Notes: generated by a model from the sequence alone, not told the origin. 64,000 nt of DNA from an uncultured Gammaproteobacteria bacterium (GCA_964634875.1 CAZWKA010000007.1:1649-65648), one strand, 5' to 3'. Positions 35,446 to 61,889 are shown, counted from the stretch's first letter. A program made the numbers and translations.

Positions 35446-35449
35446 AAAC

Positions 35450-36529: not shown

Positions 36530-37405
36530 TTATCGTATCAGTATAGCACCCTCCGTATCAGTTCGTAAAATAGTCACACCAGCCCGCTCCAATCGCTTTA
36601 TAACCCGCAGCGAAGGGTGCCCATAGCGGTTGGGACCGGTCGAAATAGTCCCCACCCTCGGCGCTACTGCTCGCAAAAACTCATCGCTGGTTGAAGTTTT
36701 ACTGCCATGATGCCCTATTTTGAGAATATTTGACTGCAGCGCTGGGCAGGGATACAGGTAGATACTCGAAACTGTACCGCAGTACCGTTTAAGGAGCGCC
36801 TGTTCCAACTGAAATTCTGTATCTGCAGTTAGTAAAAAGGAATTGGTTCTGTCGTCGAGGCGAAACACGATGGAATAATTATTACTGTCGTCAGTTGCGG
36901 TAGTTACTCCGAGGAGCGGATCAGGCGATACAAAGCGCAGCGTCGAACTGGCGATCGTCCACGTAGCCGGTTTATCGATAGTACCAAGCTTCGCCCCCGA
37001 AGCCTGCCGAACAGCATCCCAGGTTTGCCAATAAGGATCGTTCGGTTTCACCGCACCATTGGTAATAATCACCCGCACCTTATACCGCTTGACGACATCA
37101 ATACAGCCGCCATAATGGTCGAGATCGGGGTGCGTTACCACAAGATACTCAATTGACCGGTCGTACAACGGAAGCTGCTTACCCAGCTCTGACAATACCA
37201 ACGTATTTGCCCCACAATCAACCAGCATTTTTTCACCGTTCCTAAACTGGATGAGCGTGCTGTCGCCCTGGCCGACATCAAGAAAGATTACTTTAAATTG
37301 ATGACGGCGAACGTCGTCGTATTTTAGATACACCTGCACCCCAGCAAAAACGAAGCTGAGCACGGCTATCACAAAAATTATTTTTTTCATAAGCCTATCT
37401 GTCAT
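36530..37405 (-). CDS. Membrane-anchored MBL-fold metallo-hydrolase (ComEC C-terminal-domain-like)
   Basis: THPDLDHYGG metal-binding motif. N-terminal TM helix. Lies two genes downstream of the ComEC gene, which lacks an MBL domain. Confidence 0.65.
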   Translation of the reverse strand: MTDRLMKKIIFVIAVLSFVFAGVQVYLKYDDVRRHQFKVIFLDVGQGDSTLIQFRNGEKMLVDCGANTLVLSELGKQLPLYDRSIEYLVVTHPDLDHYGGCIDVVKRYKVRVIITNGAVKPNDPYWQTWDAVRQASGAKLGTIDKPATWTIASSTLRFVSPDPLLGVTTATDDSNNYSIVFRLDDRTNSFLLTADTEFQLEQALLKRYCGTVSSIYLYPCPALQSNILKIGHHGSKTSTSDEFLRAVAPRVGTISTGPNRYGHPSLRVIKRLERAGVTILRTDTEGAILIR

Positions 37406-37521
37406 TGCGAGGAGTGAGGCACGAATGACGAAGCAATCCCCTAGATTAAAAAATAATGCAATTAATTATTAAAAAGCTGGCACTACTACCGAGGGGATTG
37501 CTTCGTTTCGCTCGCAATGAC
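37401..37521. repeat. Palindromic MITE-like element, full intergenic copy (family GTCATTGCGAG...CTCGCAATGAC)
   Basis: gtcattgcgaggagtgaggcacgaatgacgaagcaatcccc ... ggggattgcttcgtttcgctcgcaatgac. Confidence 0.7.
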
Positions 37522-37526
37522 AGAAG

Positions 37527-38153
37527 TTATTTACTTACTACAATAATCTGATTCACCCACACCCCTTTTTCCTCAATCATACTTTCTTTTTCAATCCCAA
37601 AAGCCAAGCTACCTAAAATCTCCCGGATTTTTTCCGGCCGATGGTAATAAGAATCAATCTTAATAATCCCCTGTTTTGTCTCAACTTCGGGCGCTTCTTT
37701 TTGATTGATGTTGGTAACGATCAATTTTCCACCCGGCTTTAGTACCCGGTAAGCTTCGTCAAAAAAGCGTGTCGGATCTTTGAGATGCACAATAAGAAAA
37801 GCGGCCACGACAAAATCAAAATGAGCATCAGGAAATGACATACTTTCTGCATCACCAACGACTGTTTCGATCTTTGTTCTAATTTTATTCCGCAACACTT
37901 TCAACATTTCTTCCGATACATCAAGCGCCGTTACCAGAGCGCCCTTTTTAACTAGCTCAATCGCTAGGCGTCCCGTGCCTGCGCCCACATCGAGAACTGT
38001 CTTGCCCTCAAGATCGCCAAACAGCGGCAGCACTTTCTGTTGTTCAAAACTGTTGAGGTATTTTTCTTTTTTGTCGTAGGTGCTTGCGGCCAGATCGTAG
38101 CCAGTTTGTGAATTGTGGATCTTTATTTTTGACTTTGACATAACAAAATACAA
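37527..38153 (-). CDS. Class I SAM-dependent methyltransferase
   Basis: VLDVGAGTGRLAIEL glycine-rich SAM motif. Confidence 0.8.
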   Translation of the reverse strand: MYFVMSKSKIKIHNSQTGYDLAASTYDKKEKYLNSFEQQKVLPLFGDLEGKTVLDVGAGTGRLAIELVKKGALVTALDVSEEMLKVLRNKIRTKIETVVGDAESMSFPDAHFDFVVAAFLIVHLKDPTRFFDEAYRVLKPGGKLIVTNINQKEAPEVETKQGIIKIDSYYHRPEKIREILGSLAFGIEKESMIEEKGVWVNQIIVVSK

Positions 38154-38168
38154 AACAAAAAATATAAA

Positions 38169-38537
38169 TCAATTGAACGACTTTCTAACAGTACGAACAC
38201 TCGCTCCAAGCATGTTAGCAATTTCGGTAGTTTCTTTTAATAATCTCGTAACCGAATCTCTATTTGCCTTGTGTGAGGCTCTTAATAAACCAAGCCAAAA
38301 TTTACTTTCATTAGCAGATTTTAAAGCATGATTTAAAAAGACTGCAAAATCTTTTCGAGAATTTCCCCCTTGGGATTCCGCAATATTAGCTCCGATACTG
38401 GTACCGCTACGAAGAAGTTGTTTTGAAATAACCTGAACACTCCAATCATTCTTGTTCAAAGTATCTAGTAACTTAATTAATTGAAGCGCATGCTTATAAG
38501 CTCTATATTTAAGATTGTTTTCTTCAGTCATACGCAA
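38169..38537 (-). CDS. Four-helix-bundle protein (the family often found inside 23S rRNA intervening sequences)
   Basis: GTSIGANIAESQGGNSRKDFAVFLNHALKSANES matches the family signature. Confidence 0.7.
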   Translation of the reverse strand: MRMTEENNLKYRAYKHALQLIKLLDTLNKNDWSVQVISKQLLRSGTSIGANIAESQGGNSRKDFAVFLNHALKSANESKFWLGLLRASHKANRDSVTRLLKETTEIANMLGASVRTVRKSFN

Positions 38538-40174
38538 TATTTTGTATTTTTTTCTTTGTATTTAAACTTTGTTAGCAACCGCTCGCTCCTCGCAATGACA
38601 GCAAATAACGCAACATACAGTCCAATCATCCCCCACCACGGCAAAGCAGTATCGAAGGATGCCCAACTTTTCTCCCCAAAAAAACTAACGACCAGTATAA
38701 CATACTTGAGACCCAACGCAGCAAGCCAAGCGATTATTTGCCCCAAAGGGAAATATAAGAAACTCGCTACAAGCGAAACAAAACCGAAGAGCATGAGCCA
38801 GGGTATACACCATAATATTAACACATTCACCAAGGGCGCGACGGTTGATAAGCGGCCAAACTGAAAAAGGATGAGGGGCAGCGTGGCAATAATTGCCGAA
38901 AGGGTGGCAATAAGCGTTTCAACAAAAGGCTTAACTTTGTCATTGCGAGCTAAGCGAAGCAACCCCCTCGATAAACAAGTCCAGTTCTTGTTAAAAAATG
39001 AATCTGTAATCAAGGGGATTGCTTCGTCCCCGCCGCGGCAGGTCCTCGCAATGACATGCTCTAGCACGGGTGAGACATACACAAGCCCGAGCGTTGCTAA
39101 AAATGACAACTGGAACCCCGCGTCCCAGATAAGTACGTACGGATTCAATAGCGTCATCACTGCCGCAGTAAAGACAAGTACGTTACTGATGCGCGACAAT
39201 CGCCCCAACTGGCGCGCGACCAGAACCAAACTCCCCATGATCCCAGCGCGCACAACCGATGCAGAGGCACCGGTAAAAATAACAAAGATACAAATAATCC
39301 CAAGGATACACCAAAAGGCACGGCGACGGGATAGCCCGGCCAGCATAAAAATACTGCCGAGCACCGTGCCAATGATCGTAATGTTAAATCCGGAAACAGC
39401 AATGATGTGCGTAACGCCGGTACGGCTGAAATTCTCACTGAGTTCCTTGGGTAACCCACTTTTGCTGCCGTACAGGAGACCGGCCATGAAACTAGCTTCG
39501 GGCTCACCCCAAAGCCGGCCAATCTGTTGGCCAATACGTGATTTTAATTTTAGAATCCTACCCATCAGCGGGCTCCCGCTTTGGCCTTCTTCTAGAGTAA
39601 TAAACGGATTATTACACACCGACCAAACAGCTTGCTGAGCCAAGTATTTATCATACCGAAATGTCCCATCCGGGGCGACGAACGGAGCGTCAAGCAAGCA
39701 TTTGATGGTTAATCTGTCGCCGTACTGAAAAGCCGGGTATGATCGATTCTTAAGCAACATTTTTCCTGAAACAAAGTGTTCAGTCTTATTTTCAATCAAT
39801 TTTTCGACAGCGAGGATATAGCGAGTTTCGCCAATCTGCACGTCCGGTTCTGCGGTCACAAATCCCGTTACCGTTACCGGGCGCCCATTGTACGAGTGAA
39901 GCTCGCCGGGCGCATCCGCTGGAAACGAAACCAAAAAACGGAGTGCGCCAAGGATAAAAAATAAAACAACCAAAAGAATACACCTAGCGCCCAACCGAGA
40001 CCAATTCATAATCGCCAGGAACGCAGCGATAAAGAATAGAATAAATAATGGATACAAGAAGTAATCATCGGTGCAAAACGAAAAAATCCCTGCCCCAAGC
40101 ATAAACGAAAAACAAAACGCGAGGAACGTTTTGCTTCGTGAATTGATTATTGTGGTATATGCCCCCTCAAGCAT
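38528..40174 (-). CDS. comEC: ComEC/Rec2 family competence membrane protein (N-terminal OB/DUF4131 plus competence channel domain; no MBL domain)
   Basis: Polytopic protein with the competence-domain segment GVTHIIAVSGFNITIIG. 548 aa, compared with about 750-aa full-length ComEC. Contains an in-frame MITE copy. Confidence 0.75.
   Translation of the reverse strand: MLEGAYTTIINSRSKTFLAFCFSFMLGAGIFSFCTDDYFLYPLFILFFIAAFLAIMNWSRLGARCILLVVLFFILGALRFLVSFPADAPGELHSYNGRPVTVTGFVTAEPDVQIGETRYILAVEKLIENKTEHFVSGKMLLKNRSYPAFQYGDRLTIKCLLDAPFVAPDGTFRYDKYLAQQAVWSVCNNPFITLEEGQSGSPLMGRILKLKSRIGQQIGRLWGEPEASFMAGLLYGSKSGLPKELSENFSRTGVTHIIAVSGFNITIIGTVLGSIFMLAGLSRRRAFWCILGIICIFVIFTGASASVVRAGIMGSLVLVARQLGRLSRISNVLVFTAAVMTLLNPYVLIWDAGFQLSFLATLGLVYVSPVLEHVIARTCRGGDEAIPLITDSFFNKNWTCLSRGLLRLARNDKVKPFVETLIATLSAIIATLPLILFQFGRLSTVAPLVNVLILWCIPWLMLFGFVSLVASFLYFPLGQIIAWLAALGLKYVILVVSFFGEKSWASFDTALPWWGMIGLYVALFAVIARSERLLTKFKYKEKNTKYCV
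38939..39055. repeat. MITE-like palindromic element inserted in-frame within the ComEC ORF
   Basis: gtcattgcgagctaagcgaagcaacccc...ggggattgcttcgtccccgccgcggcaggtcctcgcaatgac. Translated as ...EHVIARTCRGGDEAIPLITDSFFNKNWTCLSRGLLRLARNDK... A further 19-nt arm at 38581-38599 supplies the last codons (VIARSER) of ComEC. Confidence 0.65.
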
Positions 40175-40251
40175 AGGCTGGAGTTTGGTTAAAAAGACGT
40201 ATCAAGCATTAGGCAAATACGAGGAAATTGAATTCACTGCTTGGGCATATA

Positions 40252-40890
40252 CTACGATCGGACGAAGAACTCATACACGATTAGAGCCACTTGAAAAATA
40301 ATCAATGCCTCAATAACCCATGCTGCAAAACGTATTTTGCGGCGCTGACTATTGTATAGAGCGACATCAGCGGGATCGATAGGCACAACGCTATACCCGG
40401 CAGCACGAAGCGCACCCGTCAATGTTTGAACATCACCGTATGAAAGTTGATACAACCAGGGGGCCTGATCACTGCACTCAATCTTGATCGCCCAGGTAGC
40501 TTGGAATTTGACGAGCGCGAACAGGTTAAGCGAAGGACTCGGCACAAAAGAAATTCTCGTAACCGACGATTTAGCCACAGTGTTGAGCAGTTTTGCGCCG
40601 TGCGATCTAACCTCCAACCCGGCCTCCCCGACACGCAAGTATTCCCGTTTGCCCAGAGCGCTCCAAAACCATATAGCAATAATAACCGTAAAAAGTTTGG
40701 CCGCGACCACGAGCGCCTCAACGTTAAATTCGTAAGGGTACTGCTCAAGATTCTTAACAACAAAAAAAGTACCCACCGCAACAGTGACAACAGTCATGAA
40801 AATAGCCAACCAAAAAACTCGCCGCAAATTAAAGCCCGGATTTTGGAGTATATATGTGTACGAGTTTTCAGGCATACATTTAGACAACAA
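40252..40890 (-). CDS. Hypothetical polytopic membrane protein
   Basis: Three to four TM helices. Overlaps the leuS end by 11 nt. Confidence 0.4.
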   Translation of the reverse strand: MLSKCMPENSYTYILQNPGFNLRRVFWLAIFMTVVTVAVGTFFVVKNLEQYPYEFNVEALVVAAKLFTVIIAIWFWSALGKREYLRVGEAGLEVRSHGAKLLNTVAKSSVTRISFVPSPSLNLFALVKFQATWAIKIECSDQAPWLYQLSYGDVQTLTGALRAAGYSVVPIDPADVALYNSQRRKIRFAAWVIEALIIFQVALIVYEFFVRS

Positions 40891-43800
40891 TACTTACCAA
40901 TTTGCCTTTGACATAAATGACCTTCTTTGGTTCTTGACCCTTCAGCCAAGCAACAATTTTTTCACTTGCTAGCGCCAGTTTTTTAACTGTTTCATCGTCA
41001 AGGTTCTTAGCGACCGTCAGCTGGTCGCGGACTTTACCATTGACCTGAATAACGAGCGCAAAGCTGTCATCGACTAACCATTTTGCATCGGCAATGGGCC
41101 ACGGCGCGAGCGCCACGCTACCGTCGTTACCGAGGGCACTTGACCACAACTCTTCGGCTACATGCGGCGCAAACGGCGCAAGTACTTTGATCAGCATTTC
41201 ATACACTGACTTGCCAATATGCGTAAAACCACTCATTTCATTAATGAACTCCATCATCTTGGCAACTGACGTGTTAAATTTCATTTCATCAATATCGCTC
41301 GACACTTTAGCAACGAGGCGGTGCGCTAACTTATATTGCTCCTCAGAAATCCCTGATTCATCAGCGGTAACTTTTTCTTGCAAGTTCCACACTTTTTCAA
41401 GAAAACGATAGACACCAACAACACCATTCGTATTCCAAGCTACTGCCTGGTCGAACGGACCCATAAACATAATATAGCTGCGTAAGGCGTCGGCACCAAA
41501 CTGAGCCACAATATCGTCGGGATTCACCACGTTCCCACGACTCTTACTCATTTTTTCACCATCTTCCGCAAGAATGATGCCGTGGGAAGTGCGCTTTTTA
41601 TACGGTTCGAGTGTTGGGACTAATCCCTGGTCATACAAAAATTGATTCCAGAAACGGGAATAGAGCAGGTGCAGCACCGTGTGCTCATTACCACCGTTAT
41701 ACCAATCAACGGGCGCCCAGTACTGTAGTTTTTCTGGTGCAGCAAAGGCAGTGTCGTTGTGCGGATCCATATAGCGCAGCCAGTACCAACTTGACCCAGC
41801 CCAATTCGGCATCGTGTCGGTTTCACGGCGGGCTGTGCCAGGAACAAAAACATTGTGGATGTCGGTGTAGTTTTTAAGGATTTGGTTTTCGGGCAATACT
41901 TCTTTAAGCTTTTCAAAACCATGATACCCCCAGGCACAACCAATAATATTCCTTCGGTCTAAGAATTCTTCAAGCTCATAGACGTCTGCTTTGGTATCTG
42001 TAAAATAAAAAGCATCTTGTTCGCTTATTTCCCAAGCCTTACAAATTGAAGCAATTTTTTCTTCTTTGGAATGGTGGTCTTCAAAAGTAAGCACATGCGT
42101 AGCATCAAGACCTGACACTGCAATTTTATTTTCAATGTATAATTTTGACCCACTTGAAACAATCGCAATTTTGGTGTTTTTAATCTTTTTAATTTCCGCA
42201 ATAAACTCAGCGAACAAATCAAAGCCCTCAGCATTCATCTGCGCTCCATACTCAGCTGTAAACCGCTGGTTCCACGCAACCATTTCATCCGTCATAGTAT
42301 GACCTTTAGCATGATACGGTTTTTTATCAAAATATTCTTCCATCTGCGCGAGGGCATCATCACGATCTTTAGCATAACCTGAAGTAACCCGTGCCCGGAG
42401 TGACGCCTCAAAAGTATCGCCAACGACACCGTCAAAATCAAAAATTAAATACTTAGGGGTGTCGGCTGACAACTTGGTACAGCGCGGACAATCGGTTTTT
42501 ACCCAATCATCAATTTTTGACAGCGGTGACTCGCCCGTGTCAGTCGGTTCATATTTTTCTACCTGGGGCAACGTGAGCGGCAGCTGGTCTTCCGGAACTG
42601 GCACATACCCACACTTATCACAAATGACAATGGGAATTGGTTCACCCCAGTAGCGCTGGCGTGAAAAAACCCAGTCACGGAGTTTGTAGTTGGTTTTGGC
42701 GACACCAAATTTCTCAGTAATTTTTTGCTTGGCTTCCGCCGAAGTAAGACCGCTAAACTCAGCGGAATGTATGAGCACACCGTCTTCGGTAAGCGCAAAG
42801 CCGCCAGCAGTAAACCAACGCCATTCAAATGGTCCGTCAACCACATTCACAAAGCCGCCTACTTCATCCTGCGGTATCCAAACCGGGTCATGCTTAGCAC
42901 TTTCGGCGAGCGCAATAGTATCTTTAGCTTCGTCATCAAGCTCAAAATGCAACGGATGAATTTCAGCATACCGATTTTCATCTTTGTGTGCCGCATGGTA
43001 TTGAGTGTGAAACTCAACGCCCAGCGACCGGACAAAACGAATATTCCTATATCCTGTTTCTTCCATAATTTCCCGCTTCGCCGCCTCAACCACATCTTCA
43101 CCATCTTCGACACCACCAATTATAAAGGTATGCGGTAAACGACTGCCCCAGACTGCGCCTTTCCATGAGAGCATCAAAATTGCACCATCACTTTTACGGC
43201 TGACAATAGCGTGCACCGTACGCCGACGGACTGTTTTTTTATCCGGCCGTGGCGGGTTTACTGGCTCGATGAATTGCGGCGCAATTACCTGTCGCACAGA
43301 AAGATTATATTTTTTAGCGAACTCAAAATCACGCTCATCGTGAGCGGGCACGCCCATGACTGCACCAGTACCAACCGTACTCAAAACATAGTTAGTAATC
43401 CATACCGGAACAGTTTCGCCGGTGGCCGGATTCACTGCGGTGACACCGGTTTCGATACCAGTTTTTTCGGGTTCTTCACGGGTATTCATAACCGCACGGG
43501 CGGCGATACATTCGGCAATATATTTTTTGACCTCGACTGTTGTTTCCCACCCGACTTCGAGCCATTTTTTGGCAACTTCGGGGGCAATAGCAATATAGGT
43601 GACGCCGAAAAGAGTATCCGGACGCGTCGTGAAGACTTCTATTTCTTCAAATCCAGGGAATTGCTTCGTCGTTTCACTCCTCGCAATGACAAATTTGATG
43701 AGTGCACCTTCACTTTTGCCAATCCAATTTTGTTGCTGTGCTTTGGCTTCGGGAATATACTTTACTTCTTCAAGTCCTTGAAGCAACTGCTCAGCATACT

Positions 43801-45338: not shown

Positions 45339-45344
45339 ACAAAA

Positions 45345-45388: not shown

Positions 45389-45390
45389 TT

Positions 45391-46655: not shown

Positions 46656-46749
46656 AGGATTAAAATTAAAAGCTAAAAATAAAAGCTAAAAATAAATGTG
46701 TCACCGTGGCGACTCCACTATTTTTAGTTTTTCGTTTTGCGCTTTACGT
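46656..46749 (-). repeat. Copy 4 of the roughly 85-nt palindromic intra-operon element (infB-trxA spacer)
   Basis: ...aaataaatgtgtcaccgtggcgactccactatttttagtttttcgttttgcgctttac... Confidence 0.55.
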
Positions 46750-49475: not shown

Positions 49476-49887
49476 AAAGATCTTTTTCCTAGTTCCAAGC
49501 CCCCGACCATCACTCCTTTCGTCGTAAAAACCAGTGACCCCGCGCTCGCTCTGAGAAGCTTGAGCGCACCTTCTCCAAACACCCTTTAGCATAGAAGTAT
49601 TTTAAGGATGTTAGGAACAGGTTCAATAAATACCCTAATTTAAGCCATTTTAGCTTAACCACGGCGAAACACCCTTGACAAAATGCTCAAAATGTGCTAG
49701 GATTGTTCGTTCCTGAAAAAGATCAGGAAGTTCTTTTAAATAGTGGCTGATGCCGTAAAACCCTTTAGGGATAGAGGTTTCTACGGCATTTGCCAAACAA
49801 CCATTTCAGGGAGGCGGAAAAACCAAAATTCCACTGCCTTGAGACCCAACGTCGACCAAACGAACTTTTTCGGAGGAACCTGAACAT

Positions 49888-51043
49888 GAAGAACGCACAC
49901 CTGACGACCCTCGCCGCGCTCGCCCAGCGACTGAGCTCCCTGCTCATCCTGGCGGCGCTCAGCGCTTGCTTCGACTTCGGCGCCCTCGTGGGGCCGTGCC
50001 AGCCGAACTCCACCGCCCCGGGGTGCGTCAGCCCCCCGGACATCGCGTGCGAGGAGCCCGACGACTGCATCGGCAGCCGCCTCACCACGGTCTGCCAGGG
50101 CGGCCGCTGCCGCTCCACCGCGACGGGGAAGTGCAACAGCACCGTGAACTGCGCGAGCGGCCTCGAGTGCAACTCGGGCTCCTGCAAGGAGCCCATGAGC
50201 ATGATGCCCGACATGGGCACGGTCGACCCCAAGACCTGCCAGAATGAGAAGAACTGCGCGCCCGGCGCCGCGTGCACCGACCAGGCGCAGTGCCTCTCCG
50301 GCATCTGTGAGACCGGCACCTGCCGGGCGAAGCTCACCGAGACCTGCAAGGAGCACAACGAGTGCCAGGCCAGCCTGACCTGCGGGCCGAACAAGACCTG
50401 CCAGGCCAGCGGAGGCGCCGCGTGCACCGACCAGGCGCAGTGCCTCTCCGGCATCTGCAAGACCGGCACCTGCCGCGGCAAGGTCGGCGACGGCTGCACC
50501 ACGGCCGCGACCGACTGCGATGACAACCTCATCTGCCCGTCGGGCACCCGCAAGTGCACGGTGCCCACCCTGCCCAAGTGCACGGTCGGCACGCAGCTCG
50601 ACGGCCCCACCAACCCCTGCGGTGGCGACCAGACCAACACGGTGTGTTCGCCGCTCGACAAGTGTGGCGTTGATCGGTACGTCAGCAAGGCGGCCGACTG
50701 TGACCTCACGAAGGCCCCGATGTTCGCCGGCAACCCCGGCGGCAAGGGCGTCTGCGCCGTGGGTGTCAAGCAGTACATGTTCATCCAGAACAAGGGCGAC
50801 GCGACCAAGGTGTCCGTGATCGCGACCCCGCCCCGCACCATCGCCGACCCGGCCGACGGGTCGTTCTACACCTTCAACGACACGGAATTCGTCTCGGCCT
50901 TCGCGGCGAACGGCGGCGACCAGACCACCACGATCGCGTTCTGCTACAACACCAAGTGGAACGCCATCGGCAAGGGCGAGTCCCCGGCCTACGTGTGCGG
51001 CGGACCCAACAAGTGCTGCAGCAGCGCCGTCACCCCTCCGTAG
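49888..51043 (+). CDS. Lipoprotein with tandem Myxococcus-type cysteine-rich repeats (385 aa). Very GC-rich.
   Basis: GGAGGAA 7 nt upstream. Lipobox ALSAC. Duplicated CTDQAQCLSGICxTGTCR units fit a Cx2Gx2Cx2GxC pattern. The overlapping antisense ORFs 49765..50841 and 49781..50356 are artefacts. Confidence 0.65.
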
Positions 51044-53798: not shown

Positions 53799-54074
53799 AT
53801 GAACAAAGCAGAATTGGCCCAAACTTTGGCCGAAAAACTGAACGTTTCAAAACGTGAAGCCGAAGATATGCTTAACTTATTGGTCGAAACAATCACTATG
53901 ACCCTTAAGAAAGGCGAAGAAGTTGTGTTAACTGGTTTTGGCGCTTTCAGTGCCAAGCAACGCGCAGCTCGCACCGGTGTTAACCCACAGAATCCTTCAC
54001 AAAAAATCCAGATCCCAGCCGTTATGGTTCCTAAATTTAAAGCTGGCAAAGCCCTCAAAGACGCCCTCAAATAA
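53799..54074 (+). CDS. hup: DNA-binding protein HU
   Basis: MNKAELAQTLAEKL...GFGAF...PKFKAGKALKDA. Confidence 0.9.
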   Translation: MNKAELAQTLAEKLNVSKREAEDMLNLLVETITMTLKKGEEVVLTGFGAFSAKQRAARTGVNPQNPSQKIQIPAVMVPKFKAGKALKDALK

Positions 54075-54263
54075 TTATTACGGACAGTAAAGATCCTCCC
54101 GCTTGTCGGGGGGATTTTTTTATCTCCTTGCTATATTGACAAAAACCACAATCTCACATATACTGAACTGTTTCTTAGCCAGTCGCTCGGGAAATTTCCT
54201 AACCACCTTTTTTGGGTTGGTCAGGGTTCGCCCCGGCTGACTAGGAACACAGGAGGAACGCTA

Positions 54264-55451
54264 ATGTTCAAAGGAAAGATAGAAATTACGGCCATGGTCT
54301 TTGCCGTGCTCGCCGATGAGCGGTTGGGTCTGACGGCCGAACTACAACGGGCCCGCGATGAAGCGGCGGATGCGCAGAAGATCGGCAAGATCGAGAGTTC
54401 GCTGTCCGGCAACCGGGACGAGTGGTTCCGACGGCTCGACAATCTCGAGACGACCACCTTCGACAGGATCGACCTGCCGAAGGACGAGCTGCTCGCGATC
54501 TTCATGGCGGATCTTGCCATAGCGGAAGAGCACACACCCTGCAGTAATGGGTGGGGGCTCGACATGGCCATCCAGATGGTCGAGCAGCGGCTTAGCCCGG
54601 CGCACGGACGCCTGGCAGCCATCTGGCGCATGACCCTCGACGGACTCGCCGAGCGGAACGCCCCACTCGACGCCATGCTCATCACGAAGCTGGCGATCTT
54701 GAACGCCATCCGGCGCGAGCAAACGCCCGATCAACCGGCTATCGACAGTCTCATCAACGAGATCAAGAGTGCTGCGCTCCAGATCGACGAGGCAAAGCGT
54801 CGGAGCCGCGTGCTCTCGTGGCTGCTTCGGCAGGCCGGCATCGTCGCTCGCCGCACTGGCAACTACCCTCTGGCCAGTGAGATGCAGGAGCTGGCGGCCG
54901 AAACCGCCACCGACCGGGCGAACAAAACGATGTACCGCTTCCTCAGCCTGGTCGAACAGCACAACCAGGCGGTGTTCACGGGGAGCGACAACACCCCGTT
55001 CACCGCCCAGGCTCTCGATGACGCCTACGACGACGTCATGGAGGCCATGGGCAAGGGGCACGACTGGGCACCGAACCCCCCGATTCATGTCGTCTGGGCC
55101 TGGTGGCTCGCCGATCTGAGAGGTCCTCAGGACGAGGTGCTCATCGAGCAGACCATCGGCCTCAGCGGCAAGCAGGCCGAAGTCTTCGTGGACTGGATCA
55201 CCCTCATCCAGGCCATCCGGGCCGAGCGCCACGGTGACCACATCGCTGCCACCGAGTTCGCTCTCCGGATCATCGAGACGGCCAAGGGCGACGAGATCCG
55301 TGCGAGCGCCTACGTGCTCCTCGGCAACCTCGCCGTCACCGAGGACGAGCAGGCCAGCTACTACCTTCTGGGCAGCCGCGCCAACAAGAGCGAGGGCCAC
55401 CAGGTGGCCAAGCTCGCCGAGCGCAAGCTGCAGTCGCTGCTGCAGCGCTAA
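54264..55451 (+). CDS. Hypothetical all-alpha cytoplasmic protein (395 aa). GC-rich foreign cassette.
   Basis: AGGAGG 8 nt upstream. The antisense ORF 54342..55400 is an artefact. Confidence 0.55.
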   Translation: MFKGKIEITAMVFAVLADERLGLTAELQRARDEAADAQKIGKIESSLSGNRDEWFRRLDNLETTTFDRIDLPKDELLAIFMADLAIAEEHTPCSNGWGLDMAIQMVEQRLSPAHGRLAAIWRMTLDGLAERNAPLDAMLITKLAILNAIRREQTPDQPAIDSLINEIKSAALQIDEAKRRSRVLSWLLRQAGIVARRTGNYPLASEMQELAAETATDRANKTMYRFLSLVEQHNQAVFTGSDNTPFTAQALDDAYDDVMEAMGKGHDWAPNPPIHVVWAWWLADLRGPQDEVLIEQTIGLSGKQAEVFVDWITLIQAIRAERHGDHIAATEFALRIIETAKGDEIRASAYVLLGNLAVTEDEQASYYLLGSRANKSEGHQVAKLAERKLQSLLQR

Positions 55452-55611
55452 CCCTGCGCCACCACCCTTCCTTTCACAATGGCCGACCGGGCGGCCATCT
55501 CTTCATTCTTGAAAAATACTTTTCACGAGTGAAGATATCCTGACGCTGTTGGGATGCAGATTTCTCTACCTACTTTGCTTACCCAAAAAGATTGAGTATA
55601 CTCAAGGGCGT

Positions 55612-56427
55612 ATGAACCCCACTCAATTTCGCCAAAAAATTTATGCTTACGCTGCTAGCGCAAATCGCCAGCTCCCCTGGCGTGAAACCACCGACCCTTA
55701 CAAAATTTTGGTTTCGGAAATCATGCTCCAGCAAACTCAAGCTGAACGCGTGATTCCAAAATATAAAGCCTTTATTAAACAATTTCCCACTTTCAAAAAA
55801 CTAGCCAACGCAAAACTTCCTGACCTCCTAAGCGCTTGGCAGGGGCTTGGCTACAACCGTCGCGCACTGTCACTCCAAAAAGCTTCCAAAATAGTTATTC
55901 AAAAATACAAAGGAAAAGTACCTAACGATCCCGAACTCCTCAAAGAACTTCCTGGTATCGGACCGGCTACAGCAGCATCGATCGTTGTCTACGCTTTTAA
56001 CCTGCCATTTGTTTTTATTGAAACAAATGTACGCACGGTTTTTATTCATTCTTTTTTTTCGAACCGAACTGATGTTACTGATACTGAGCTACTTCCAATT
56101 ATCACCAAAATGTTAGATCGAGGTAACCCACGTAAATGGTATAATGCGCTCATGGATTATGGGGTTATGCTCAAAAAAACCCATAAAAACCCCAGTCGCG
56201 CGAGCGCCCACCATACCAAGCAATCCACCTTTAAAGGGTCTCTCCGGCAGGTGCGTGGACGAATTATAAAAATAATTACACATAAAAAAAATAGTACCCT
56301 CGAGGAACTTACTAAAGAAACCATTGATCTGCCACAAGCATCGTCCGATACCTTGGATACACTTATTACTCAGCTTGAGAAAGAAGGTTTTTTAAAAAGG
56401 AAAGGCACACGGATCAGTATTGCCTAA
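55612..56427 (+). CDS. HhH-GPD superfamily base-excision glycosylase (MutY/Nth-like)
   Basis: Helix-hairpin-helix segment LPGIGPATAASIVVYAF followed by the catalytic Asp in NALMDYG. The start was chosen at MNPTQF. Confidence 0.7.
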   Translation: MNPTQFRQKIYAYAASANRQLPWRETTDPYKILVSEIMLQQTQAERVIPKYKAFIKQFPTFKKLANAKLPDLLSAWQGLGYNRRALSLQKASKIVIQKYKGKVPNDPELLKELPGIGPATAASIVVYAFNLPFVFIETNVRTVFIHSFFSNRTDVTDTELLPIITKMLDRGNPRKWYNALMDYGVMLKKTHKNPSRASAHHTKQSTFKGSLRQVRGRIIKIITHKKNSTLEELTKETIDLPQASSDTLDTLITQLEKEGFLKRKGTRISIA

Positions 56428-56530
56428 AATCCCTAAACCCTTGATTTTTTTGTGGTTTTAGTGTATAAAAAAAGCATACCCTTATTACTTCGCACCTTAA
56501 AAACCAGCAACACAACCGGGAGGTGCTCGT

Positions 56531-57007
56531 ATGGACCACCGAAAGCCGCTAACTGTTACTTCATCCTGGACAGAGTCCCTAGAGCTGGCAACAGCGACCG
56601 TCTCGCTCTTCGCCATGCTCTTCGGCATCGTCTGGTATATGGGTGCTAGCGCTGAAGCCCACTGGATCAGCCCGCCGCTACTGTGGCACCACAATGCGGT
56701 CGGTAAGCCAACCGACTTTTGGTGGTTCCAGGGAGCGTGTGCCACCCTGCTCTACCTCGGCGCCGGGATTGCCTTCTTCTGGTCGTTCATGCGGATCCTC
56801 GCCCGTCACCAGACCAAGGAGAAGCAGCGGATCGCCGACCAGGTCGTCGCTGAGGCGCAATGGGACAAATTGTACGAGTCTTTCTTCACTTCCCCACGCC
56901 CACCCGCCCTCAGTTCAGTGGAGATGGAGACTCACCAACTACCCGTAGCGACTCCAAAGCGACGGACACGTCGTCCGGGGCGCAGAAAAGCAGCCAGAGC
57001 AGCGTAG
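56531..57007 (+). CDS. Hypothetical two-TM membrane protein with a basic C-terminal tail. GC-rich cassette.
   Basis: GGGAGGTG 6 nt upstream. TM helices TATVSLFAMLFGIVWYM and ATLLYLGAGIAFFWSF. Confidence 0.5.
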   Translation: MDHRKPLTVTSSWTESLELATATVSLFAMLFGIVWYMGASAEAHWISPPLLWHHNAVGKPTDFWWFQGACATLLYLGAGIAFFWSFMRILARHQTKEKQRIADQVVAEAQWDKLYESFFTSPRPPALSSVEMETHQLPVATPKRRTRRPGRRKAARAA

Positions 57008-57180
57008 ACAGGCTCTTTCTTATCTTCGTTCCCCGCGGCCAGCATTCTAGCTCGCCGCTTCAACCCTGTAGACACCTTCACCTTGAAGGTGTCTAGCGGA
57101 CTGAATAGTCACCCAAAAATTGACAGCTTACCCTGGCCGTGGTACTATGGAGGCGTTCTGAACTATCTCTTTTTTGTTCT

Positions 57181-57399
57181 ATGAAAGAAAACCTATACAA
57201 CATTTCTCAGCTTGTTTTAGCCATTTTACTCATTATTGTCGTCCTACTCCAACAAAAAGGCGGCGGCTTGGGTGCGGCTTTTGGTGGTTCCAGCAATGTT
57301 TACAGCACCAAACGCGGCGTTGACAAAATACTCCATTATTCGACTATTGTTGTTAGCGTACTTTTCTTCGGCTTGTCCTTAGTCCGCCTTATCTTCTAA
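57181..57399 (+). CDS. secG: Preprotein translocase subunit SecG
   Basis: LVLAILLIIVVLLQQKGGGLGAAFGG signature. Confidence 0.8.
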   Translation: MKENLYNISQLVLAILLIIVVLLQQKGGGLGAAFGGSSNVYSTKRGVDKILHYSTIVVSVLFFGLSLVRLIF

Positions 57400-57482
57400 A
57401 TTGCCTTGGTTCGAGGCCTCTTAGAACGCCAGACACAACCTGGCTCCGGCAAACAGCCTCCCTCCAATAACCTTCTTCCCTC

Positions 57483-59438
57483 ATGAAGTTCGGCACTTTT
57501 TTTACGTGGTTTAAAAAACAAACCCGCAGCATCTTGCCCAAGTCGAAACTTGACCACAAGCTTATCGGCTCAATCAATGCGCGGACAATCCCGAGCCTTA
57601 CCCAGCTTAAGTACGTCGGCCATTTTCTGGCACCACAAGAAAAAAAGATGCTAGGTATCCTGGGAACTGTCGTAGCTGTTGCGACATTGGCCCTGGGTGG
57701 TGTTTTTGTTGTCACTCACTTCACGGCTGTAGCTAAAGAAGGCGGTGACTACAGCGAAGCAATGGTCGGACAACCTAAATTTATCAACCCGATCTACGCA
57801 AGCGTCAGCGATATTGACAGCGACCTGAGCTTTTTAACCTATACCGGACTTTTCCGCTATACTAACGGCCACGAACTTACCCCTGATCTGGCCGAAAAAT
57901 ACACCCTCAGCGACGATAAAAAATCCTATACCGTCACCCTTAAACCTAACATCGTTTGGTCCGATGGAGAGCCGCTCAAGGCCGACGATATCATCTTTAC
58001 ATTTGAGACGATCCAAAACCCCGAATCAAGCAGCCCCCTCTTACCTGCTTTCCAAGGAGTAATCATTGAAAAAATAGATGAGTCAACTATCCGCTTCACC
58101 CTCAAAGAACCCTTTGCACCGTTTCTCAACAGCTTAACCGTAGGCATCATACCCGAACATATTTGGAGCGGGATTCCACCGCTTAATCTGAAGCTTGCTC
58201 CGACCAACCTCAAACCTGTGGGTACTGGCCCGTGGAAATTTAGCAGGCTCATCAAAGACGATCTCGGCACGATCCAAAGTTACGTTCTCGTACCCAACGA
58301 CTTATACTACGGCCAAAAACCATACCTTAAGACCCTAACGTTTAAATTTTTTGTTGACCCAAACGAAGCGGTCGAGGCAGTGCAAAACCAGTCGGTTTCG
58401 GCTATTAGCTTTGTACCGAGCAAATCCAAAGACAAACTCAACAGCAAAAACTTGGTAAGCCACACGCTCATTCTACCCCAGTACACCGCCCTATTTTTCA
58501 ACCAAACCCAAAACGATAACCTAAAAGACAAGGATTTACGCCTCGCTCTCGCGACTGCGCTTGATAAACAACAAATCGTGGACACAGCGCTTGAAGGCGC
58601 AGGGCAAGCGATCGATTCGCCACTTTTGCCGGGGAGTATTGGGTACTACCCTGATATCAAAAAAATCGCTTTTAACGTTGATGCGGCCAACGCACTTCTC
58701 GACAAAAAATGGGCTCGAATACAGCCCGAAGAATACTTTAAGCTGCGCCAAACGGCTCTCCTCAAAAATAGCCAGGCTGAAATTGATGCTGTAATCAAAA
58801 ACCCGCCCGAAGGCGAAACAGCGTCGAGCAGCGTCGATAGAATCAACCAGGATATCGCCGACCAGGTTCGCAGCGAAATGAGTTCGGAGCAAACCTTTTA
58901 CCGTAAGACCAAAGATGGTGTGCCACTCCGGCTCAGCATTACTTTTGTTGATACTAAGGAATACCAAAAAAGCGCCCAGATGGTCGCCGCCGCCTGGAAG
59001 GCGATCGGCGTACAAACCGACCTCAACCAGGTCAGCAGTCGTCAGATCAGCAGAGATGTATTTAAAAACCGTTCCTACCAAATCCTACTGTACGGCGAAA
59101 TCATTGGCGGTGATCCCGACCTGTTCCCTTTCTGGCACTCCACGCAAAGCGATTATCCCGGTCTTAATTTGGCTCAGTTTTCCGACCGCACCGCCGATAA
59201 ACATCTGGAAGAAGCCCGCTCAGCGACTGACCCAGCTGCCCGCGAAGCTTTGTATAAAAAATTCCAAGACATTTTGGTCGACCAATTACCTGCTATTTTC
59301 TTGTTTACGCCTAATTACAATTTCTTTGTGAACGAAAATATTAAAGGTATTACTGTCGAACGTATTACTGCGCCCAGCGACCGGTATAACACTTTGAGCA
59401 ATTGGTATGTAAAAACAAGTTGGAAATGGAAAGAATAA
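57483..59438 (+). CDS. ABC transporter substrate-binding protein, family 5 (oligopeptide/nickel type), membrane-anchored
   Basis: N-terminal anchor helix. Length and sequence fit the SBP_bac_5 family. No permease or ATPase genes are adjacent. Confidence 0.7.
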   Translation: MKFGTFFTWFKKQTRSILPKSKLDHKLIGSINARTIPSLTQLKYVGHFLAPQEKKMLGILGTVVAVATLALGGVFVVTHFTAVAKEGGDYSEAMVGQPKFINPIYASVSDIDSDLSFLTYTGLFRYTNGHELTPDLAEKYTLSDDKKSYTVTLKPNIVWSDGEPLKADDIIFTFETIQNPESSSPLLPAFQGVIIEKIDESTIRFTLKEPFAPFLNSLTVGIIPEHIWSGIPPLNLKLAPTNLKPVGTGPWKFSRLIKDDLGTIQSYVLVPNDLYYGQKPYLKTLTFKFFVDPNEAVEAVQNQSVSAISFVPSKSKDKLNSKNLVSHTLILPQYTALFFNQTQNDNLKDKDLRLALATALDKQQIVDTALEGAGQAIDSPLLPGSIGYYPDIKKIAFNVDAANALLDKKWARIQPEEYFKLRQTALLKNSQAEIDAVIKNPPEGETASSSVDRINQDIADQVRSEMSSEQTFYRKTKDGVPLRLSITFVDTKEYQKSAQMVAAAWKAIGVQTDLNQVSSRQISRDVFKNRSYQILLYGEIIGGDPDLFPFWHSTQSDYPGLNLAQFSDRTADKHLEEARSATDPAAREALYKKFQDILVDQLPAIFLFTPNYNFFVNENIKGITVERITAPSDRYNTLSNWYVKTSWKWKE

Positions 59439-59451
59439 CGTTTACTTAAAA

Positions 59452-59533
59452 GCGGACGTGGCGGAACTGGTATACGCGTACGTCTCAGAAGCGTATGGAG
59501 CAATCCTTGAGGGTTCGAGTCCCTCCGTCCGCA
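59452..59533 (+). tRNA. tRNA-Leu (anticodon CAG), long variable arm
   Basis: Acceptor stem GCGGACG/CGTCCGC. Anticodon loop CTCAGAA flanked by TACGT/GCGTA. T-arm GAGGGTTCGAGTCCCTC. Discriminator A, no encoded CCA. Confidence 0.85.
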
Positions 59534-59560
59534 CAAACAAACAACCCCACCAATAATCCC

Positions 59561-59697
59561 GTCATTCCGACCGACCTGCCGCGGCGGGGAGCGGAGGAAC
59601 CCCTTAAAGCTTGTTTTACTTTTTTAGGTTTGTTTAAAAACAGACGCTAAGGGATTCCTCCGCTACACTCCTGTGTCGTCGTTCCGTTCGGAATGAC
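59561..59697. repeat. Divergent copy of the MITE-like palindromic family, immediately 3' of tRNA-Leu
   Basis: gtcattccgaccgacctgccgcggcggggagcggaggaacccc...gggattcctccgc...cgttcggaatgac. It shares gacctgccgcggcgggga with the ComEC copy. Confidence 0.6.
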
Positions 59698-59795
59698 AAC
59701 CAACTTTTTTAAACTCACATTTTTACTTATTTTATTTCTTTGAATTGTAGAATCTTCTTATTTTCTCATTTCAAGCTAACTCAACAAACTCTCGT

Positions 59796-61829
59796 ATGAA
59801 CCCAACACCGCTTGCCCCCCTCGCACCACTTGACCTGGGGAAACCATCGACCACACCACAGCTGCCTTTGCGCCGCCGTACTCCGAACACACCCTTTAGG
59901 GCTGCGCCTGTTTCGGCTCGTCAGCCAGCCGCACCCCTCGCTCGAGCGCCAATTGCTGCAGCTCCACTACAGCGCTTTCCCGCGCCTACAGAAAGCAAAT
60001 TAAAAACCACCACACCACATCTCGCTCACAAACCACTTCCGCACTCAGCGCACCAAACCGCCCGGCCACGCCGCGACAAAGGAACGGGCTTTACCCCATA
60101 CCAGGCCTACCCAGGAAAACCAACGGGCACCGCACCATTCAAGCCAGCCCCTACTCAGGCCGGTGGCGGCACGCTTCGGATTATTCCAATCGGCGGCTGT
60201 GAAGAAGTTGGACGCAACATGACCATCTACGAATATGGCGATGATATTATTATCCTCGACATGGGCGTGCAATTCCCGGAAGAAGACATGCCGGGTATTG
60301 ATTATGTCATCCCCAACACCAAATATTTAGTCGGCAAAGAAAAAAATATCCGTGGGGTTATTTTTAGCCACGGCCACCTCGATCATATTGGCGCCGCACC
60401 AATCCTGCTTGAAAAACTAGGCAACCCACCGATCATTGGCATGCCACTCACCCTTGCGATGATCAAACATCGCCAGGAAGATTACAAAAAAGATACCGGT
60501 GCCAAACTCCGTACGATCCCGGTCAAAACCATTAACGATGTCATCCAGCTCGGAGCTTTTAAAGTGAAATTTTTCCAGGTAGAGCATTCGATCATGGATT
60601 CGATGGGTACCATCCTCGAAACCCCGGCCGGAAGCGTCATGCATGCCGGAGACTGGACCATGGAGCGCCAAGAAGACGGCTCAACACATATCCACTACGA
60701 ACAGCTTCAAAACGTAAAAAAACCAAGCGTCCTCATGCTTGAGAGTCTTGGTTCTATTCGCGAAGGCCGCCACGCTACACACGAAGAACTCTACAGTAAC
60801 CTGACTGAAATTTTGGAAAACGCCCCAGGCCGGGTTATCTTGGCTACGTTTTCTTCCATGGTGGAACGCGTTAAATGGGTTCTGGAAGCTGCCCAAAAAC
60901 TGGGTAAATTTGTCGCCCTCGCTGGGTACAGCATGAAAATGAACATTGAGATCGCGCGCGAACTTGGCTATATCAAAGTAGGCAAGGGCGTCCAGATCGA
61001 CATGCGCGATATTGGTAAATACCCGGATAATAAAGTCGTACTAGTCTGTACAGGCGCACAAGGAGAAGAAAATGCTGCCCTCAACCGTATTGCCAGCGGC
61101 GAACATAAGGATATCCGTTTCCAAAAAAATGACACTGTAATCTTCTCGTCTTCCGTTATCCCGGGCAACGAGCGCACGGTTCAACGCCTCAAAGACAATA
61201 TCTACCGCCAGGTCGATAACGTCATTCATGGCGACCTGATGGACGTGCACGTCTCTGGACACGGCACTCGCCGCGATATCGTTGACATGTTAAACCAAGT
61301 CAAGCCTGATTTTTATATCCCGGTCTACGCCAACCACTTCTTTCTCAAAGAAGCCCGGAACCTGGCTGTCAAAAATGGCTACCCTGCTAACCGGATCTTT
61401 GTACCCGATAACGGTACGGTTATGGAATTATCCGGCGGCAAAATTACGGTCTTACCTAAAAAAGTACCGAGCGAATATGTGTTCGTGGACGGCCTCGGCG
61501 TTTCTGACTCGCAACATGTCGTACTGCGCGACCGCCAGGTCCTGGCTGAAGATGGCATGGTTGTGATCATCGCGACGGTTGATACCAAGAGCGGCAAGCT
61601 GATCCAGAATCCCGACATTATCTCTCGCGGGTTTGTCTTCCTCAAAGATCACAAAGAGTTAATCGAGGACTTACGCCACCGCGTCAAAAAGATGGTCGTT
61701 GAATCTGACCCGCTATCCTGGGCTGACACCAACAACATCCGCAACAAGATCCGCGACTATGTCGGTCAATTCCTCTTCACGAAAACCGAGAAGCGCCCGA
61801 TGATCTTACCAGTGGTGATTGAGGTATAG
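59796..61829 (+). CDS. rnj: Ribonuclease J with a roughly 125-aa Pro/Ala-rich N-terminal extension
   Basis: MBL motif HGHLDHIGA, the beta-CASP region and the C-terminal domain. The low-complexity N-terminus (PLAPLAPLDLGKPSTTPQLPLRRRTP...) is GC-richer than the rest. Confidence 0.85.
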   Translation: MNPTPLAPLAPLDLGKPSTTPQLPLRRRTPNTPFRAAPVSARQPAAPLARAPIAAAPLQRFPAPTESKLKTTTPHLAHKPLPHSAHQTARPRRDKGTGFTPYQAYPGKPTGTAPFKPAPTQAGGGTLRIIPIGGCEEVGRNMTIYEYGDDIIILDMGVQFPEEDMPGIDYVIPNTKYLVGKEKNIRGVIFSHGHLDHIGAAPILLEKLGNPPIIGMPLTLAMIKHRQEDYKKDTGAKLRTIPVKTINDVIQLGAFKVKFFQVEHSIMDSMGTILETPAGSVMHAGDWTMERQEDGSTHIHYEQLQNVKKPSVLMLESLGSIREGRHATHEELYSNLTEILENAPGRVILATFSSMVERVKWVLEAAQKLGKFVALAGYSMKMNIEIARELGYIKVGKGVQIDMRDIGKYPDNKVVLVCTGAQGEENAALNRIASGEHKDIRFQKNDTVIFSSSVIPGNERTVQRLKDNIYRQVDNVIHGDLMDVHVSGHGTRRDIVDMLNQVKPDFYIPVYANHFFLKEARNLAVKNGYPANRIFVPDNGTVMELSGGKITVLPKKVPSEYVFVDGLGVSDSQHVVLRDRQVLAEDGMVVIIATVDTKSGKLIQNPDIISRGFVFLKDHKELIEDLRHRVKKMVVESDPLSWADTNNIRNKIRDYVGQFLFTKTEKRPMILPVVIEV

Positions 61830-61847
61830 TACCACTTACGTCAATCG

Positions 61848-61889
61848 TCATTGCGAGCGAGGTCTGCCTGCCGGTAGGCAGGGAATCCC
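61848..61889. repeat. Partial MITE copy (left arm) after rnj
   Basis: gtcattgcgagcgaggtctgcctgccggtaggcagggaatccc. Confidence 0.5.

Follow-up and report, generated by a model that had tools for sequence, protein, structure and literature searches.

Several described families of dispersed palindromic repeat resemble the one that we report here, whose copies begin GTCATT, end AATGAC and lie both within and between genes, including comEC and leuS, in a 64-kb stretch of DNA (CAZWKA010000007.1:1649–65648; hereafter the window) that, on the strength of Pfam and orthologue searches, comes from a Patescibacteria bacterium (best-named matches, Candidatus Magasanikbacteria). The Neisseria intergenic mosaic elements (NIMEs), for example, are variable units of 50–150 bp bracketed by inverted dRS3 repeats. 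In NIMEs, as in the present family, two short inverted units akin to repetitive extragenic palindromic (REP) sequences bracket a variable segment; unlike NIMEs, which form long intergenic arrays in one genus, the copies described here are mostly solitary and often intragenic. dRS3 and the Rickettsia palindromic elements (RPEs) RPE-4 and RPE-6 have been grouped in the class of CGTC/TGTC-tagged REPs (Di Nocera et al. 2013; PMC3733652). In that class, a unit carries a terminal CGTC, often TGTC, and has a stem of 8–9 bp that starts A-T, T-A, a loop of 4–5 nt and a short unpaired tail, mostly CCA; units occur mainly as head-to-head dimers with spacers of 20–100 bp, are found in genes, including repair genes, are listed for five phyla and have no associated transposase (PMC3733652). 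REPs also have documented host roles (PMC3733652).

RPEs (Ogata et al. 2000, 2002) are palindromes of ~100–150 bp that are found in frame in unrelated housekeeping genes and are translated there, with other copies being intergenic; they are confined to Rickettsia, and each is described as encoding a conserved peptide (PMC10969869, PMC3733652). QMITE2 of Coxiella burnetii (Wachter et al. 2018), a palindrome of 150–190 bp found mostly at the 3' ends of genes, is a landing site for the insertion sequence (IS) IS1111, is reported with 7–11 nt direct repeats and a GTAG REP core, and exists in a short form that is shared with Bradyrhizobium and Rhodopseudomonas (PMC5896051). Here we present evidence that the palindromes in the window are probably a non-coding, REP-like selfish DNA repeat with a pattern of spread, survival in genes and decay that we set out in the Discussion.

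Results

Copies of the repeat in the window

The first-pass annotation of the window, made from the sequence alone, had reported six sites occupied by a family of imperfect palindromes, and all six exist (Table 1). The 11-mer GTCATTGCGAG matches the window seven times, on both strands, when up to one mismatch is allowed, and all seven matches are exact; 0.99 matches would be expected by chance, and none of 100 shuffled sequences reached seven. The inner arm GGGGATTGCTTCG was located with no more than one mismatch in the main-type copies A, B and D, and elsewhere in the window gave a chance background of two-mismatch matches. The inventory comprises three full palindromes (A and B of the main type, E of a sister type) and three partial copies (C, D and F), and a search throughout the 64 kb revealed none beyond these. 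Some of the boundaries first reported needed adjustment: fragment F starts at 61847 rather than 61848, the fragment in leuS reaches 43650, and the fragment at the 3' end of comEC spans 38580–38599. Similarly, the termini originally described are those of the main-type copies, whereas copy E ends in GTCATTCCGA and TCGGAATGAC and has GCGGAGGAAC and GATTCCTCCGC as its inner arms. The architecture of this sister subfamily is also found in locus L255 and in the ComEC loop of locus L207, and an 18-nt side-hairpin module, GACCTGCCGCGGCGGGGA, is identical in copies B and E. The 5' junction of copy B holds the side hairpin CCTGCCGCGGCGGGG. In fragment D, the centre and the 3' arm of the element have been deleted.

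Table 1 Copies of the repeat in the window and the two genes that host them.
Feature	Length	Position	Strand	Context and evidence
Copy A, full	121 nt	37401..37521	+	Intergenic; exact 11-nt termini and both inner arms
Copy B, full	117 nt (39 codons)	38939..39055	-	In frame, ComEC loop
Fragment C, 5' terminus GTCATTGCGAGGAGCGAGCG		38580..38599	-	Encodes last ComEC residues (VIARSE...)
Fragment D, 5' half and a few bases of 3' inner arm		43650..43690	-	In frame, LeuS
Copy E, full, sister subfamily	137 nt	59561..59697	+	26 nt 3' of tRNA-Leu(CAG)
Fragment F, 5' portion (terminus, side hairpin, inner-arm start)		61847..61889	+	18 nt 3' of RNase J (rnj) stop codon
comEC	548 aa	38528..40174	-	Pfam DUF4131 and Competence (3.6e-49 and 5.4e-18); orthologue alignment
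leuS	1169 aa	40880..44389	-	Pfam and alignments; fragment D in loop before TTRPDT motif

Anatomy, folding and ends of the element

Each unit of the element consists of a Y-GTC tag, ATTGC, a junction of 4–50 nt (which may carry a small, lineage-specific, G+C-rich hairpin) and GCAAT-CC, and a full element consists of two such units, inverted, that flank a variable A+T-rich centre. The outer stem is of 11–12 bp and the inner stem, (C)GAAGCAATCC/GGATTGCTTCG, is of ~13 bp; with two inverted units arranged round a centre, a single strand can form a long hairpin. Indeed, as the first-pass annotation had anticipated, the full copies are predicted to fold into hairpins of −45 to −62 kcal/mol (z −5.3 to −8.9), and none of 200 shuffles folded as well. 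In particular, the hairpin of copy A is of −46.5 and −51.1 kcal/mol on its two strands (z −5.7 and −8.3), that of copy B on the sense strand is of −61.3 kcal/mol (z −8.9) and that of copy E is of −60.1 and −61.8 kcal/mol. The anticipated hairpin does not extend to the partial copies which, fragment F included, folded no better than shuffles when taken alone. Within this structure, the 8-nt ATTGCGAG pairs with a partner ~95 nt away, and the only pairing inside a unit is the 5 bp of ATTGC/GCAAT; in the subfamily switch these become ATTCC/GGAAT, with the 5-bp pairing inside each half retained. After GCAATC, the first base is C (55% of copies) or T (35%) in most cases and the second is A in 47%; in the dimer, these bases are paired with the opposite unit.

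We compiled statistics on ends and flanks from 129 copies of the element. The 5' flanking base, before GTCATT, was C or T in 123 of these (C 78, T 45; it is T or C in the window copies as well), and the 3' flanking base, after AATGAC, was G or A in 125 (G 83, A 42), so that the ends read YGTCATT...AATGACR. No direct repeat indicative of a target-site duplication was present in 120 of the 129 copies, nor at the window copies or at five copies in comEC that are described below. The inner arm GAAGCAATCC was present in most copies although the search pattern, which specified the termini only, did not require it, and this internal arm is as strongly conserved as the terminus.

The arms are conserved in sequence and show little covariation, whereas the ~3 variable base pairs just past the inner arm do covary (68–78% paired, versus 28–44% with shuffled partners). 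We considered a structure in the mRNA and rejected it, since the sense and antisense strands of ten copies of known orientation showed no consistent bias in folding. Together, the scarcity of covariation in the arms and the lack of a strand preference suggest that the element is recognized at the level of DNA. Searches of Rfam with the window and 18 further loci gave no match at the gathering score and, at E ≤ 1, only hairpin look-alikes far below threshold. A terminator scan of positions 59300–62100 flagged neither copy E nor fragment F; the terminator-like hairpin of rnj is separate and lies further downstream, at 61934–61964. Copy A, which lies outside the scanned region, has no T run after its hairpin. 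Copies A and E have stop codons in all six frames and lengths that are not divisible by three, and family-wide only 31–39% of frames are open, which argues that coding ability is a filter rather than a property of the element. The element is not a 'coding' element, and its intragenic copies are presumably survivors of selection.

Comparison with described repeat families

Like the CGTC-tagged REPs, the element has a Y-GTC outer tag, a stem that starts A-T, T-A, and what may be a CC(A) tail after the second half of the stem; its full copies are all inverted pairs of units, arranged head to head about a variable spacer, that can fold as a large stem-loop, and it occurs in several phyla and within genes, repair genes included, with no dedicated transposase. 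Described in these terms, each half of the element looks like a CGTC/TGTC-tagged REP unit, a likeness drawn from the published descriptions of CGTC-1 to CGTC-4. Unlike in those REPs, however, the stem of a unit is of only 5 bp across a junction of 12–50 nt (as opposed to 8–9 bp and a loop of 4–5 nt), the best-conserved pairing is between units, in the outer stem of 11–12 bp, and the family is found in many more than five phyla, including those of the candidate phyla radiation (CPR). Because the strict geometry of the CGTC-REP unit is not reproduced, we file the element as a related new family rather than as a proven member of that class.

With RPEs the element shares in-frame, translated insertions that are absent from orthologues (in ComEC and LeuS here, and in UvrB, a histidine kinase and an ABC-F protein elsewhere) alongside intergenic copies, and no mobilizing enzyme has been identified for either. 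The reading of the first-pass annotation, that of a dispersed, RPE-like palindromic family with translated insertions, is at its core borne out by evidence from orthologues and from intergenic DNA. Unlike the RPEs, to which it is likened here by description, the present element has no inherent open frame, has a variable centre and occurs in many phyla. QMITE2 is likewise palindromic, and the two genera with its short form, Bradyrhizobium and Rhodopseudomonas, are rich in the present family, which Coxiellaceae and Legionellales carry too; just as QMITE2 is a landing site for IS1111, genes of the GIY-YIG, IVP and DUF559 families are found in or beside the present element. The direct repeats and GTAG core of QMITE2 were not seen in the present family. 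On the basis of these descriptions, the two may overlap.

The first-pass annotation had called the repeats MITE-like (miniature inverted-repeat transposable element). The element is indeed small (117–137 nt) and non-coding and has perfect inverted termini of 11–12 bp, but neither a target-site duplication nor a related IS with the same ends, nor a transposase, was found in the loci examined. The term MITE in its strict sense does not apply, and the anatomy of a REP dimer provides the better fit.

In-frame insertions in ComEC and LeuS

Both host genes remain open through the copies that they contain, as had been claimed, and the copies add peptide. In ComEC, the DNA-uptake channel, copy B, which is open only in the ComEC frame, reads VIARTCRGGDEAIPLITDSFFNKNWTCLSRGLLRLARND, and fragment C reads as the C-terminal VIARSE; a separate Logan assembly, made from a public run, encodes the same protein with its insert. 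As foreseen in the first-pass annotation, alignment of orthologues showed these segments to be additions. The closest ComEC orthologues, P0003 and P0004 (72–73% identical to the window protein over the N-terminal region; 67–69% by BLASTP), lack the 39 residues, whereas P0002 has a degenerate version; the pattern of identities, (P0001,(P0002,(P0003,P0004))), suggests that the element was lost in the lineage of P0003 and P0004. The location of copy B in a loop is weakly supported by an AlphaFold model of ComEC, which is of low confidence (predicted local distance difference test score 59 overall, and <50 over residues 380–409).

In LeuS, the leucyl-tRNA synthetase, the reading frame continues through fragment D as VIARSETTKQFP. 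Of 101 orthologues whose loop could be delimited, 78 have 15–16 residues from the SxG motif to the TTRPDT motif, compared with 24 here. A syntenic relative, L124, has a complete 117-nt, 39-codon element after the same Phe codon, and another, L122, with 89% identity over this stretch, carries a native loop of 21 residues. By these comparisons, fragment D looks like an internally deleted remnant of an element. We considered whether the L122 loop might itself be a decayed remnant and rejected this, as it belongs to a native type of 21–22 residues that is common to several orthologues.

Copy A occupies the spacer between a methyltransferase gene (37527–38153, minus strand) and a Lactamase_B gene (36530–37405, minus strand). 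At the corresponding junction in L121, L122 and L124, copy A is absent and the two genes are 1–3 nt apart. Occupancy therefore differs among syntenic relatives at the ComEC loop, at the LeuS loop and at this spacer, and supports insertion at each. (Note that the AATGAC terminus of copy A, at 37401–37411, contains an ATG that is in frame with the Lactamase_B gene and precedes its likely start by five codons, MTDRL-MKKIIF...; the element could therefore extend the N-terminus of the product, or change it or the point at which translation starts.)

Some further features of the host genes were observed. The ComEC encoded here lacks a C-terminal metallo-beta-lactamase domain, and the separate Lactamase_B gene, with an N-terminal hydrophobic segment of its own, lies two genes downstream; this arrangement is conserved in L122 and L124, and some relatives carry a further gene, Lactamase_B_3, just upstream of comEC. 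The core of the window LeuS holds a NUDIX domain (residues 388–510) and a HAD_2 domain (residues 648–803), whereas that of relatives holds NUDIX only (L122, 954 aa) or NUDIX and an alpha/beta-hydrolase (L124, 1229 aa, as well as L205 and L207), and many Patescibacteria LeuS proteins have PF00293 matches. LeuS is thus an essential aminoacyl-tRNA synthetase with a recurrent, variable insertion of whole domains.

A single ComEC codon is occupied repeatedly

Among 120 Patescibacteria ComEC orthologues, the loop that follows the SPxLxx motif is of 24–31 residues in most and of 38–65 residues in ~33. Unexpectedly, at least 21 of these long loops start V-I/V-[A/P/L/S] and end ARND, RGND or LRMT, as is characteristic of peptides encoded by GTCATT...AATGAC elements of several subfamilies. 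The DNA of five such genes (that of the window and those of L124, L205, L206 and L207) has an element at the identical codon, preceded by T and followed by A, with its hairpin intact, in hosts whose N-terminal regions are only 49–63% identical; the element of L207 is of the other subfamily, so that different subfamilies occupy the same codon in lineages that are 59–63% identical. The left flanks of the five share no motif beyond a T. The first-pass annotation had held that sharing of these peptides by ComEC proteins of unrelated taxa would count against their derivation from an element; this proved misleading, in that VIAR...ARND is shared by distant orthologues but the underlying DNA is the element, at the same codon.

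Private features are also shared: the centre of copy B is closer to that of the L124 copy than to that of copy A, and the copies in the comEC genes of L205 and L206 have the same mismatched pair of arms. Shared private features in orthologous copies suggest old, vertically inherited insertions. Perfect 11-nt termini in insertions of such age, together with the subfamily switch, by contrast suggest selection, gene conversion or site-specific re-insertion. Whereas an 'ongoing' source of protein novelty had been proposed, the ComEC insertion is common to ~50% identical lineages and looks either old or site-specific. A second site of recurrence is the C-terminus of ComEC, which is element-coded in 16 of the 120 orthologues (15 VIAR-type, 1 VIPS-type), with a junction ~13 residues past the WW(G)M motif in the 11 that we aligned by eye.

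Distribution across bacteria

A scan of representative genomes for the two termini at a distance of 80–110 nt identified the pair in at least 120 genome stretches from many phyla. The matches listed cover the Alpha-, Beta-, Gamma-, Delta- and Epsilonproteobacteria, Chloroflexota, Bacteroidota, Firmicutes, Cyanobacteria and CPR, and among them are Bradyrhizobium and other Alphaproteobacteria; Azoarcus, Accumulibacter and Limnohabitans; Legionellales and Coxiellaceae; Desulfobacteraceae; Helicobacter rodentium and H. canis; Chloroflexus, Anaerolineae and Dehalococcoidia; Pedobacter, Mucilaginibacter and Sphingobacterium; Ignavibacteriota, Armatimonadota, Clostridia, Atribacterota, Planctomycetota and one cyanobacterium; and, from the CPR, Parcu-, Kuenen-, Komeili- and Peregrinibacteria. 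Alphaproteobacterial megaplasmids carry copies (one Novosphingobium replicon has them at 38 places, none of which is annotated), three phage records contain partial matches, and 46 stretches were found in IMG/VR viral contigs. The family is therefore pan-bacterial and not a lineage-specific marker. In-frame copies were found in UvrB and in a read-through from TruB to a cytidylyltransferase, both in a gammaproteobacterial metagenome-assembled genome, in the HATPase_c domain of a Bacteroidetes histidine kinase, in an ABC-F protein of H. canis, in a Wzy_C protein and in a radical-SAM protein. In the read-through (L114, 2528–3790), a copy at 3182–3313 joins truB to a downstream cytidylyltransferase-like (ribF-type) gene in an uninterrupted open reading frame (ORF) of 421 codons, which, judged from the sequence, is possibly an element-mediated gene fusion.

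Copies on the same contig can be up to 84–93% identical in the variable interior, and in one such pair (L103) the flanks are clearly unrelated. We considered such pairs as proof of recent transposition and rejected them as such, because the picture is mixed, some pairs lying inside larger duplicated blocks. Copy number differs between close relatives, with none in 13.5 kb of L122 versus three in 13.7 kb of L124. No transposase, IS or other protein family recurs beside the elements in 120 loci, and no long version with a transposase was seen among the >250 loci examined. An exhaustive phmmer search with the element peptide returned three irrelevant repetitive matches only, a word-indexed peptide search with a 41-residue query returned none, and a search of the literature for literal element sequences returned only chance matches to primers.

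Small genes beside the element and other repeats in the window

The slot between comEC and the methyltransferase gene (38154–38599) holds, just after fragment C, a four-helix-bundle gene of the 23S_rRNA_IVP family (PF05635; 38169–38537), which fragment C directly precedes and which is itself present or absent among relatives. In relatives the slot is occupied by an IVP gene (L121, 7486–7952), a GIY-YIG gene (L205, 3313–3739) or a DUF559 gene (L207, 3178–3817), or is empty (L122, L124 and L206); the boundary of fragment C was set by comparison of the empty site of L122 with the filled site of L121. All three relatives with a small gene in the slot, and none of the three in which it is empty, have an element terminus at the C-terminus of ComEC. 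In L205, the occupant is a complete element with both arms intact whose centre is a 101-residue GIY-YIG nuclease gene, the only ORF-carrying element among the >250 loci; it represents either the nesting of one insertion in another or an autonomous version that is rare. The element seems to serve other genes as a landing pad, much as REPs serve IS elements, and its autonomy is not evident.

Other roles for these genes were considered and set aside. That the IVP and methyltransferase genes were carried in by a composite element, which thereby separated ComEC from its lactamase domain, was rejected because the methyltransferase and Lactamase_B genes adjoin comEC in element-free relatives; that arrangement is ancestral. 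That the palindromes derive from IVP cassettes or rRNA intervening sequences and have no ORF left was rejected because none of 80 IVP loci from metagenomes has an element terminus beside the IVP gene (an IVP gene occurs at one of 120 element loci, ~3 kb away). That GIY-YIG elements are the general autonomous form was rejected as well, there being a single case, two other GIY-YIG homologues that are not flanked by element arms, and a viral scan for versions of 390–420 nt that found none.

Two other repeats in the window were observed. An unrelated family of 85-nt repeats (22729–22813, 26141–26225, 35445–35529 and 46661–46745) has a short G+C hairpin set between an A-tract arm and a T-tract arm (AAAAGCTAAAAACGAAAAG...TTTTAGTTTTTCGTTTT). 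These arms resemble the A-tract/T-tract inverted repeats that bracket metagenome IVP genes (for example CTAAAAACGAAAA in L182), which have complementary flanks at z < −2 in six of eight loci; from this resemblance the 85-nt repeats may be ORF-less relatives of IVP cassettes. Positions 49765–51043, in a window of 48% G+C overall, are G+C-rich and encode cysteine-rich tandem repeats on overlapping long ORFs, with a period of 150 nt and copies at 50264 and 50414 that are 87% identical.

Discussion

We propose that the repeat is maintained and spread as DNA by a putative factor that reads its conserved ends and arms and leaves no target-site duplication. That such a factor would act in trans we infer from the conservation of the ends, coupled with the lack of target duplications and of a transposase. 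Since there is almost no intergenic space in these genomes, many insertions would fall in genes. Those that survive lie in surface or inter-helix loops that tolerate them, span a multiple of three nucleotides and are free of stops in the host frame, a pattern for which selection on the host protein is the presumed cause; they would be translated into additional loops of ~39 residues, of which the one in ComEC is an example. Decay, to judge from the half copies in the LeuS loop, at the ComEC C-terminus and 3' of rnj, would proceed through deletions that take the centre and one arm.

Several observations weigh against this proposal. Neither a transposition event nor a mobilizing enzyme was seen in the loci examined; the comparisons of empty and filled sites rest on relatives and not on near-identical strains with a fresh insertion; and copies in the source genome were counted within the 64-kb window. 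At both intragenic sites, in ComEC and in LeuS, the element replaces some native loop residues. Moreover, intact elements stand at one codon in five diverged comEC genes, orthologous copies there share private features, and perfect 11-nt termini would hardly be expected of insertions of such age if they were simply neutral selfish DNA. The mode of movement is inferred; the REP/RPE-like family itself is real and new, and newly documented for a CPR bacterium.

The persistence of perfect termini and inner arms in ComEC insertions of lineages that are ~50% identical, the conservation of sequence across phyla, the finding that, of the six copies in the window, four lie in spacers or at the 3' ends of genes, and the documented host roles of REPs (PMC3733652) could all be accommodated if the palindromes were not currently mobile and were instead host-maintained functional motifs, with the hairpin recognized by a widespread host protein (a nucleoid protein, a gyrase-like protein, an RNase or a recombination factor) and kept by purifying selection. 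We consider this unlikely: these sites are free of the element in most orthologues (native ComEC loops of 24–31 residues being the mode), copies decay to halves, copy number is sharply unequal in close relatives, and there is no folding strand bias, little covariation, no terminator context and no Rfam family. Site-specific homing, in which rare ORF-carrying versions encode a nuclease that cuts empty sites into which the palindrome is then copied by repair, would account for the repeated occupancy of one codon, by differing subfamilies, in lineages that are 59–63% identical, and for the lack of target-site duplications, which is expected of repair-mediated copying; the L205 element with its GIY-YIG gene is a candidate for such a version. 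Yet that element is one among >250 loci, with none in the viral scan, the two other GIY-YIG homologues have no flanking arms, the hot-spot left flanks have no motif beyond T, and the slot beside comEC also takes IVP and DUF559 genes, which fits small selfish genes that land in or beside the element rather than drive it. We regard homing as very unlikely.

Still less probable, in our judgement, are classical MITEs, that is, deletion derivatives of an IS moved by a DDE transposase through their terminal inverted repeats. Small size, multiple copies and perfect terminal repeats of 11–12 bp are what such an origin would produce, but so are target-site duplications, which 120 of 129 copies lack; no IS or transposase lies near the 120 loci, no long transposase-bearing version was found, and the internal arm is as conserved as the terminus. 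Finally, many distant ComEC orthologues have VIAR...ARND at the same position, as would be expected if these were ancestral segments of ComEC and LeuS and the intergenic look-alikes were coincidental. This is barely conceivable, given that the DNA in question is the same palindrome as in the intergenic copies, with identical 11-nt ends, that most orthologues and the nearest relatives lack the segments, and that the same element is found in unrelated proteins and phyla.

Our findings extend the in-frame colonization of essential genes by palindromes, best known from Rickettsia, to the CPR and to at least six other protein families across phyla. Because the family is unannotated in public records ('none' under every match), its copies would be expected to give rise to spurious small ORFs, unexplained insertions, and 'novel loops' in alignments and structure predictions. 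A bolder idea, which we think distinctly unlikely, is that GTCATT...AATGAC palindromes form a pan-bacterial class whose ends and arms are actively maintained, either by a hairpin-specific recombinase or nuclease, through re-insertion or conversion at fixed sites, or by selection. If true, this would explain why one ComEC codon is filled by intact elements of differing subfamilies across ~50% identical Patescibacteria, and the palindromes would represent a new kind of site-specific mobile or functional DNA, with neither a target duplication nor a known enzyme, beyond another REP family. The near-identical ends in distant bacteria and the recurrence at the ComEC codon provide a handle on the factor behind CGTC-type REPs.

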